Below, piece by piece: positions 9,001 to 12,000 of a DNA stretch of 17,379 bases (position 1 is the first letter of the stretch; every line of letters starts with the position of its first letter). The DNA is from a virus. Lineage: Duplodnaviria; Heunggongvirae; Uroviricota; Caudoviricetes. Where the stretch lies: positions 1 to 17,379 of IMG/VR virus record IMGVR_UViG_2690316318_000021. One strand, given 5' to 3'. A program made the position numbers.

Positions 9001-12000
9001 TTTTGTCCATCAAAAATCCAAAAGCAATACCGCTCACATATTGAGTTGACAAATCACTCACGATATGTGAGCATTTGTCATATCCAAACAACGCCCCACC
9101 AGAGAACGGCTGGACAATACCTCGAGTTATCCAGTCACTGAACAGGGCTAAGTAGCCAGCCTGAGGCATACGAACATGACGGCAGTTGTTGATTGATACA
9201 AAGCGCAGTAGATAAAACGTTCCGCCACCCGGCGTTAAGGGGAAAAAAGATGGTGCATTACGAAGTAGTTCAGTATTTGATGGATTGTTGCGGTATCACT
9301 TACAGCCAGGCTGTGCAGGCTTTACGTAGCAACGACTGGGATCTCTGGCAAGCAGAAGCCTCTATCCGCAACAACAAGATGTGAGAGTTCCCAAAATGCA
9401 AAAAATCGACCTCGGCAACAACAAATCCCTGGTGTGCGGTGTGTTCCCCAACCAGGATGGAACGTTCACCGCGATGACGTATACAAAAAGCAAAACATTT
9501 AAAACCGAAACTGGTGCGCGCCGATGGTTGGAGAAGCACACAGTAAGCTAACGATTAAAACGTCTACTCCTGCTGTTCCAGAATAACTTCATAAAATGGG
9601 AGTATTTTTCGGTGACGAGATAATAAGAACAGTTTGCGCTATCACTCTGATGTTGAATGATGCCCTTCCGTTCTAATTTTTTCATAACCGGGTTACGGCA
9701 AGGAGAAGTGATAATAAGATTTCCTGTTTTAAGGAAATCTTTAAATACAGCGATTTCTTTCTCAGATAAACGAAGCAATACTCGTTGCTCTGGTAGTAAT
9801 GAATAATGCTTTTGAATATGTGCTCGCAATCTTGAGAAGGAAATGGCGACCACGAAAGAAAAGGCAAAAACGATAATCTGAAAGAGCCAAGGTATTTCAG
9901 TATAAGCATTGAATGCGACAGTAAACTCTTTCGGTATCAGCCAGAGAGTGAGACCAAAAATGATAATCGTATACATAAGTCTTTCGAGTGGCTCGTTAGC
10001 AAAAAGTTTCAACAATGGAGTAAATACATCCAACATATCAATAACTCTCAACTGTAAGGGTATTGAAATGTTAACACAAGCTCTCGCTGTAGGGGTATAG
10101 CCGAGACCACCGAAGCCCGGAGGTGGTGAAATAAAACTGGGCGCAACACGAAGGCGCATTTCCGATATCCATAAAGAGTCGGTCTTGTCTGTTAAATTTA
10201 AATGGTGGGAGTGCGCCTCCGGTTGTAAATAACGACATTGCTGTGTGTAGTCCTGGCGGCATCAGTTTTTTCTTGAAGTTTGGCTGATGTCCGCCCTTTT
10301 TAAAGTGAATTTTGTGATGCGATGAATGCGGCTAAGCGCACGCGGAACAGTTAAAGCTAAAAACAGTGTTATGGGTGGATTCTCTGTATCCGGCGTTAAT
10401 TGTTAACTGGTTAACGTCACCTGGAGGCACCAGGCACCGCATCGACAAAATTCATTTGTAAAAATGGAGATAATTATGATTGCTCATCACTTCGGAACTG
10501 ATGAAATACCACGTCAGTGTGTGACCCCTGGCGATTATGTTCTTCATGAAGGTCGGACATATATCGCCTCGGCAAACAATATTAAAAAGCGAAAACTTTA
10601 TATTCGTAGCCTGACTACAAAAACATGCATTTCTGACTGCATGATTAAAGTCTTCCTCGGTCGTGATGGTTTACCTGTAAAGGCGGAGTCATGGTAATGA
10701 CTAAGAAAATAAAATGTGCTTATCACCTTTGCAATAAAGAAATTGAAGAAAGCAAAATCATTACAAGACCACTTCATTTCATGCGTGGAGTTATACCAAC
10801 GACGGAAATGAAAAAATATTGTAGTGAAATCTGTGCCGAAAAAGACCAGATGGCACACGAACTTTAATTAACTGACTATCCGAAACTGAATTTATGCCAG
10901 CAATGGCAGGGATTCGCTCAACCTTAATTAAGGAGAAAAACATGATTACCAGTTATGAAGCCACTGTTGTTACTACTGATGACATTGTTCACGAAGTCAG
11001 CCTGGAAGGAAAGCGTATTGGCTACGTGATTAAAACAGAAAATAAAGAAGCCCCTTTCACTGTGGTTGATATCGACGGTCCATCAGGCAACGTTAAAACA
11101 CTTAACGAAGGCGTCAAAAAAATGTGCCTAGTGCATATCGGAAAGAATCTGCCCGCAGAAAAAAAGCCGAATTTCTGGCAACTCTGATTGCAATGAAATT
11201 AAAAGGTGAAATCTGAAGAAATAGCCTGCGTATGACGCAGGCTATGAACAGTGTGTATCCGGCAAGATTATTCACTGAACAAACGAATTTTAATCTGAGT
11301 TGAGGTTAAAAAACAATGAGCACCGATAAACAAGTTTACCCACTGTATTACGAAGCAAAAAATGACAAAGTAAGAAAACGTCTCGGTATTAAAGGCGGTT
11401 TTTACTGGGCTGAAGCGAAAAAATTATCCATTGCCATCTCCCGTGGTGCTGTTGCGATTGACGATGCTGGCTACGATGAAGATGACTTCAAAAAACCTGT
11501 TCGCGTCAATTTGCCCGTTGTTGATGGCCTCCCGCCAGAAGGCGTATTTGATACGGAATTCTGCAACCGATACGAAAAAGGCGGGGAAGATGGTATCACA
11601 ATGGTACTTATCGCGCCCTCTGTTCAGGATAAACCAGCCAGCACTGACAATACCAACGTCAACGGTGAAGACATGACTGAGATTGAGGAGAATATGCTCC
11701 TGCCAGTTTCAGGTCAGATTCTGCCTGTTCGATGGCTGGCGCAACACAACAGCGAAAAACCGATCACGCACGTTTCGCGGGACGAACTGCGCGCATTACA
11801 TAACGCACAGGATGAAAAACTTCCCGCCGTTACCGCGCTGGCCATCTCAAATAAAGCAGCGCAACTCGAACCACTGGAAATTCGCGATCTCCACAAACTG
11901 GTACGCGACACTGACAAAGTTTTCCCTAATCCTGGTAATTCAGACCTGGGACTGATAACCGCTTTTTTCGAAGCATACCTGGGCGCTAACTACACCGATC

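Follow-up and report, generated by a model that had tools for sequence, protein, structure and literature searches.

The window analyzed here is the whole of a 17,379-nucleotide (nt) stretch of Caudoviricetes DNA (IMG/VR record IMGVR_UViG_2690316318_000021), which corresponds to the early-left region of a Rac-type lambdoid prophage. Its racC gene, lying just upstream of recE, has a run of seven adenines (A7) at positions 11159-11165, where alignment to Escherichia coli K-12 and to strains 300709 and R1 places an ancestral run of eight (A8). We conclude that A7 is very probably real and heritable, a -1 frameshift in the prophage racC that makes the gene in effect a pseudogene. Coordinates refer to the window, and features lie on its plus strand unless stated otherwise.

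The reading frame of racC

Direct reading of the tract gives CCCGCAG-AAAAAAA-GCCGAA, with exactly seven A. The zero frame opens with the ATG at 10942, where K-12 b1351 is also annotated to start; a Shine-Dalgarno sequence (AAGGAG, 10930-10935) lies 6 nt upstream. It reads MITSYE...PAEKKPNFWQL, ending in ...GKNLPAEKKPNFWQL, and stops at the TGA at 11185-11187. This makes 81 codons and a stop (10942-11187), of which residues 1-75 are those of RacC and residues 76-81 (PNFWQL) are out of frame. Across the tract the codons are GAA (11158-60), AAA (11161-63), and AAG (11164-66), followed by CCG. The 3' end of the gene is stranded out of frame at 11166-11216: the +1 frame from 11166 reads AEFLATLIAMKLKGEI up to the TGA at 11214-11216 (in an open reading frame spanning 11124-11216) and encodes most of the C-terminal helix of the protein. 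Its translation matches residues 76-91 of K-12 RacC at 16 of 16 positions, so a chance origin of this remnant is not at issue.

A preliminary description of this DNA had reported the A7 tract and an 81-codon racC ending in PAEKKPNFWQL at 11187, and had predicted that one extra A would yield 91 codons and a stop at 11214-11216. Both statements are borne out by direct reading. The length and the tail that it gave for RacC are also correct: the gene of K-12 MG1655 (b1351, NP_415867.1) has A8 and encodes 91 amino acids ending in PAEKKAEFLATLIAMKLKGEI.

The A8 frame is the conserved one

A8 is the normal, conserved state of the tract, present in about 95% of the copies. The closest complete genomes, those of strains 300709 and R1, have A8 and an annotated 91-amino-acid protein (WP_001737258.1). 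Over 451 nt, the sole difference between the window and these two strains is A7 versus A8, and the 1.1 kb from 10400 to 11500 is identical to strain 300709 save for one A. We counted tract lengths among 5,426 complete E. coli genomes using 55- to 57-mers with identical flanks. The segment is carried by 1771 of these genomes and, with exact flanks, A8 was found 1122 times, A7 18 times, and A9 35 times. A pattern scan that left the tract length free gave 60 A8, 4 A7, and 1 A9 among metagenome contigs, and 8 A8 and 2 A7 among GTDB species representatives. Both of the latter A7 cases are racC remnants truncated by an insertion sequence (IS) in Shigella-like genomes (“Shigella flexneri SFBU1023” and “E. 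coli ECMA0423”), where the gene lacks its 5' part and abuts the end of an IS3-family transposase. A7 in these remnants is consistent with decay of the tract once selection was lost.

The protein family points to the same frame. RacC is confined to Escherichia and Shigella, and its homologues, down to about 63-75% identity, end in a helix of the AEFLATLIAMKLKGEI type and not in PNFWQL. The diverged full-length proteins end in DRIMATLIEMELKGEI, DRFFAAMIAMKSKGEL, VKVLAELASMKLYGEL, or IKAAADMVLMKLHGEI, with conservative substitutions and a retained terminal G-E-I/L, which argues for constraint at the protein level on the A8 frame. This amphipathic helix ending in G-E-I/L is missing from the zero-frame product of the window; the +1 frame at 11166-11216 encodes it intact. 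The NCBIfam model of RacC (NF007306), with 91 positions and a curated cutoff of 171 bits, gives the 81-codon frame 169.4 bits over model positions 1-78, i.e., below the cutoff and short of full length. With one A restored, the sequence scores 201.3 bits over positions 1-91. The racC of the window is a truncated allele of a RacC family member. The preliminary description had asked which frame homologues conserve and had allowed for a consistent PNFWQL-type tail or a widespread short form; the short form turned out to be a rare minority.

Independent copies of the allele

The source of the window is evidently assembly GCA_001286085.1, whose contig CYCK01000013.1 is 100% identical to positions 3942-17379 (13,438 nt). 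The allele is found well beyond this assembly. The exact 81-amino-acid protein is in public databases (CTV39886.1 and GCH80544.1), in the same 90% cluster as K-12 RacC, and NCBI, ENA, and Logan together hold at least 22 public contigs with this form, independent runs and a metagenome among them. For the same haplotype, the 91-amino-acid version is found on 124 contigs. Logan contigs from several separate SRA and ERR runs are 99.9-100% identical to the window (L091 and L092 over 2.2 kb) and encode the 81-amino-acid form; runs with the allele include SRR5590305, SRR33299095, and ERR11841418. The same prophage, again with A7, is present on a metagenome contig from ENA (L085): this contig is 99.3-99.6% identical in two main aligned blocks, in an alignment that covers about 12.2 kb of a 13.9-kb overlap and is broken in the immunity region. 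The complete-genome set held no near-clonal genome for a comparison of homopolymer errors, its best match having 85% coverage and 93% identity, and we used look-ups of contigs with the exact protein in its place. A one-off assembly error seems very unlikely as the source of A7, because the same allele is present in independent assemblies and no other gene of the window is broken. The preliminary description had left a real variant and a sequencing error side by side; the recurrence of A7 and of the 81-amino-acid product in NCBI, Logan, and ENA assemblies settles the matter in favor of a real, heritable variant. This provides a worked example in which public assemblies of independent origin, and not reads, demonstrate that a homopolymer indel is real.

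Consequences for RacC and the retron link

We propose that replication slippage would have shortened the ancestral A8 (GAA-AAA-AAA, encoding Glu73-Lys74-Lys75) to A7. Translation past the shortened tract adds six wrong codons (PNFWQL) before an early stop, leaving an 81-amino-acid product. What this product loses can be judged from a structural model. An AlphaFold2 run on a 91-amino-acid full-length homologue, with an alignment of 21 sequences, gave a mean predicted local distance difference test score of 83.5 and a predicted template modeling score of 0.70, with five beta-strands (residues 5-51) followed by helices at 54-68 and 72-88. The frame changes after residue 75, near the start of the second helix. 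The shortened protein keeps the N-terminal beta-sheet and the first helix and loses nearly all of helix 72-88. Since the shift falls at the start of this modeled helix, the A7 gene has most likely lost its function or become strongly hypomorphic. The model itself brought no functional relatives: fold searches gave no significant match (E > 0.1 for every PDB hit, and E = 2e-3 for the best viral hit, an uncharacterized protein), and Pfam, which has no model for the family, gave no match above threshold for RacC.

The only activity reported for RacC, and for the 91-amino-acid K-12 protein only, is the blocking of the retron toxin RcaT. RacC was the strongest blocker of the RcaT of retron-Sen2 and also blocks the toxin of retron-Eco9 (Bobonis et al., bioRxiv 10.1101/2020.06.22.160242). 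The same study reported that recE triggers this retron system through degradation of multicopy single-stranded DNA (msDNA). Hence, racC and recE form a linked pair of blocker and trigger. Loss of the second helix would probably remove or weaken RcaT blocking while recE stays intact. About 4-5% of the copies combine a broken racC with an intact recE, and such prophages could perhaps be more exposed to retron-type abortive infection upon induction, although this is speculative. The premature TGA lies 29 nt upstream of the normal racC stop and 129 nt upstream of recE. Therefore, we expect no meaningful polarity on recE. In practical terms, this copy of racC is better labeled a frameshifted allele (pseudogene) than an 81-amino-acid “hypothetical protein.”

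Residual activity, slippage, and sequencing error

Several points weigh against regarding the allele as a real loss of function. Of the 91 residues, 75 remain in the 81-amino-acid form, which might still be active. In addition, the in-phase A_AAA_AAG_CC created by A7 may allow some full-length RacC to be made. The deletion turns GAA-AAA-AAA-GCC into GAA-AAA-AAG-CCG and places a dnaX-type slippery heptamer, A_AAA_AAG (11160-11166), followed by CC, in phase with the racC zero frame. After a -1 slip at this heptamer, the next codon is GCC (11166-11168) in the wild-type frame, the junction peptide reads ...AEKKAEFLATLIAMK, and the product is exactly the 91-amino-acid RacC.

The A7 allele could then be leaky, with tandem -1 slippage of two Lys-tRNAs restoring wild-type RacC, perhaps in amounts sufficient for some anti-retron activity. 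The phase of the heptamer and the rescued product follow directly from the sequence. A_AAA_AAG is known to be shifty in E. coli (PMC5009743, PMC1851650), and clones with a single-base deletion beside an AAA-AAA motif expressed active enzymes in this host (PMC1851650). Furthermore, RacC blocked RcaT even without inducer (bioRxiv 10.1101/2020.06.22.160242). The context of the heptamer speaks against a substantial effect. The 60 nt that follow it (11166-11225) fold at -7.0 kcal/mol, as do shuffled sequences (-7.4 +/- 2.4; z = 0.15), which leaves no stem-loop or pseudoknot at the stimulatory distance of 5-9 nt downstream, and by inspection the upstream GGAAAGAATCTGCCCGCAG has no AGGAGG or AGGGAG-like element about 10 nt 5' of the heptamer. 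Without stimulators, the expected efficiency is low. The two-frame arrangement is not conserved either: A8 keeps the frame in about 95% of the alleles, and A9, which lies beyond rescue by a -1 slip, is at least as common as A7. We regard a functionally leaky allele as unlikely; the heptamer itself predicts low-level leakiness at most.

Other forms of recoding fare worse. A programmed -1 frameshift with stimulators was rejected on the folding and upstream-element results just given. A -1 slip on the wild-type A8 cannot be the origin of PNFWQL, as it gives the SRISGNSDCNEIKR tail found in A9 alleles. Rescue by transcriptional slippage was rejected as unlikely: selection against A/T runs is evident at 9 nt, and RNA polymerase of E. 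coli slips only where more than seven A's follow one another (PMC1088944, PMC6260861), so A7 is below the lengths at which this happens appreciably.

The remaining points against an inherited frameshift concern the sequence data. For the source isolate, the evidence for A7 is at the level of the assembly, not of the reads, and some of the A7 and A9 alleles in databases could be homopolymer errors of long-read or low-coverage assemblies. A human gut metagenome contig (L032) with a coverage of 1.97x has A7 and a second indel. It carries a K-12-type racC with an additional A in the upstream A5 run (GTAAAAAACACTT), so that about 20 codons are scrambled before the frame is regained at the end. This is probably a low-coverage error, and it could instead be a compensated double mutant. 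In AH19B041, which is overall more closely related to the window than any other genome, both racC (A7) and ralR are annotated as frameshifted within 4 kb (region of 15526-15713), which could be real decay or homopolymer errors in the assembly. Homopolymers are classic sites of error, and the RacC clusters in databases hold many frameshifted forms from assemblies of raw runs. One could accordingly suppose that the organism truly has A8 and a normal 91-amino-acid RacC. We consider this very unlikely given the at least 22 contigs with the allele and the exact protein, the near-identity of the separately sequenced copies of the prophage, and the lack of a second broken gene in the 17-kb window.

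Recurrence of tract-length changes

A genuine, inherited A7 also fits into a wider pattern. Among the racC copies retrieved, A7 is found on about ten distinct haplotypes and A9 on two. Otherwise identical copies with A8 exist for three of the A7 haplotypes, namely those of the window, of ML35/AH19B041, and of K-12. That all A7 alleles go back to one clone lacking A8 siblings looks unlikely from these haplotypes. The allele also travels: the 81-amino-acid A7 form is present in at least four otherwise divergent prophage backbones, which are near-identical over about 1.1 kb (kilR-ydaE-racC) and diverge on both flanks. These include prophages with a recE of 1009, 1028, or 1043 amino acids and with another integrase and attachment site (ttcA). 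The RacC protein clusters contain many 81-amino-acid (-1) forms and 88- to 89-amino-acid (+1) forms with the SRISGNSDCNEIKR tail, and one protein form with KKKPNFWQL implies A10; part of these frameshifted forms are probably sequencing errors. With A7 on about ten haplotypes, the tract behaves as a recurrent slippage or indel hotspot, from which A7, A9, and probably A10 repeatedly emerge on different haplotypes. None of this brings anything new on the mechanisms of frameshift mutation.

A second A7 run within racC, at 11116-11122, encodes the GVKKM motif (GTC AAA AAA ATG). Database proteins show both frame shifts from this run, GVKKNVPGAYRKESARRKK... and GVKKCAWCISERICPQKK..., and some regain the frame at the A8 tract. 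They may be a mix of real and sequencing-error forms. Across the window, A7 runs are not enriched (16 observed versus 12 +/- 4.7 expected).

Could the variation itself be selected? Frame-switching polymorphism of the tract is evident, with A7, A8, and A9 seen directly on multiple haplotypes and A10 implied, and none of 91 racC copies, chosen by their flanks only, had the tract interrupted by a synonymous AAG. The A8 tract might then act as a mutational switch (ON, OFF, or leaky) for an anti-retron blocker placed directly 5' of its own trigger, recE, with A7 not null and giving low-level RacC by -1 slippage. This would endow the prophage with a graded setting for counter-defense, and we consider it highly improbable. 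We give almost no credence to the proposal of a phase-variable contingency locus, in which A8 would be kept so that racC toggles between A7, A8, and A9 in populations to tune the blocker against recE: as bacterial contingency tracts go, A8 is short; the codons GAA-AAA-AAA are simply those that E. coli prefers, so close relatives are expected to conserve the tract even in the absence of selection; alleles out of frame amount to only about 4.5% and resemble the ordinary decay of a gene in a cryptic prophage; and the other A7 run of racC shows frameshifted forms too.

Gene neighborhood and origin of the prophage

The frameshifted racC sits in an otherwise well-preserved early operon. The order kilR-ydaE-racC-recE-recT in the window and in GCA_001286085.1 matches that of K-12, which is the position proper to the RacC family, and the remaining genes of the 17-kb window all look intact. 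Upstream of racC are kilR (10476-10697) and ydaE (10697-10867). Downstream, recE (11316-13976) encodes an intact protein of 886 amino acids, the reported retron trigger that partners racC; the identical gene in GCA_001286085.1 has the Pfam domains Exonuc_VIII and DUF3799. It is followed on the same strand by recT, ralR, a DUF1187 gene, and genes for an excisionase and an integrase. A scan for promoters and terminators around racC found nothing relevant on the plus strand.

The recE gene has a mosaic makeup, with a 5' end and a nuclease domain near-identical to those of relatives and a middle that has 65-85% identity with indels (11500-12100 and 12850-13000). The length of the protein varies from 866 amino acids in K-12 to 886 in the window and 1009-1043 elsewhere. 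Between racC and recE, a perfect 11-bp hairpin, AUAGCCUGCGU-AUG-ACGCAGGCUAU, lies at 11221-11245, just 3' of the normal racC stop and 70 nt 5' of recE. It is kept in K-12 with a one-sided change of a U-A to a U-G pair, and it lacks a following T-run, so it does not qualify as a classic terminator. The 116-nt stretch between racC and recE folds with z = -4.05.

At the right end of the window is the host gene yebY (17038-17379, minus strand), and this flank is atypical for E. coli. The yebY segment (16900-17379) has at most 88% identity in 5,384 of 5,385 complete E. coli genomes, and 90-95% in the other one. The adjoining copD (13451-14246 of the GCA_001286085.1 contig) has at most 83.6% identity to all 5,426 complete genomes. 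These values suggest that assembly GCA_001286085.1, labeled E. coli, may come from another Escherichia species or a cryptic clade, or may carry a foreign copD-yebY segment.

Comparison with known systems

Several known systems help to place the allele. The “savior indels,” such as those in the G-run of the herpesvirus thymidine kinase gene (PMC5009743), are likewise homopolymer indels open to partial compensation during decoding. The racC A7 differs from them in showing no sign of selective benefit or of actual compensation. The racC A7 also resembles the -1 site of dnaX: the heptamer A_AAA_AAG and its phase are the same, and two Lys codons are read by a single tRNA-Lys. Yet dnaX has an upstream Shine-Dalgarno-like element and a downstream stem-loop and reaches about 50% efficiency, whereas racC A7 lacks both elements. 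Moreover, its heptamer is not conserved among homologues, having been born by mutation and not by design.

The K-12 RacC (NF007306/PRK09790; PHROG 4778) occupies the same slot, flanked by ydaE and recE. It shares about 95% identity with the window allele over residues 1-75 (4 differences), and the stranded remnant encodes the same last 16 residues. The window allele differs in being one A short of A8 and in encoding 81 amino acids with a PNFWQL tail and no second helix, which leaves it just under the family cutoff. Further parallels are the RefSeq E. coli racC genes labeled “frameshifted” by the Prokaryotic Genome Annotation Pipeline (PGAP) in LWY24, AH19B041, KR2009, BKQ37E, and ML35. They have the same A7 contraction in the same tract, but on other haplotypes (3 to 20 differences across the racC segment) and in other prophage backbones, which suggests that their A7 and that of the window arose by at least partly independent events. 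PGAP gave this label to all five A7 alleles that we checked and to one A9 allele. The change in the window is an event of an ordinary kind, already recognized by standard annotation.

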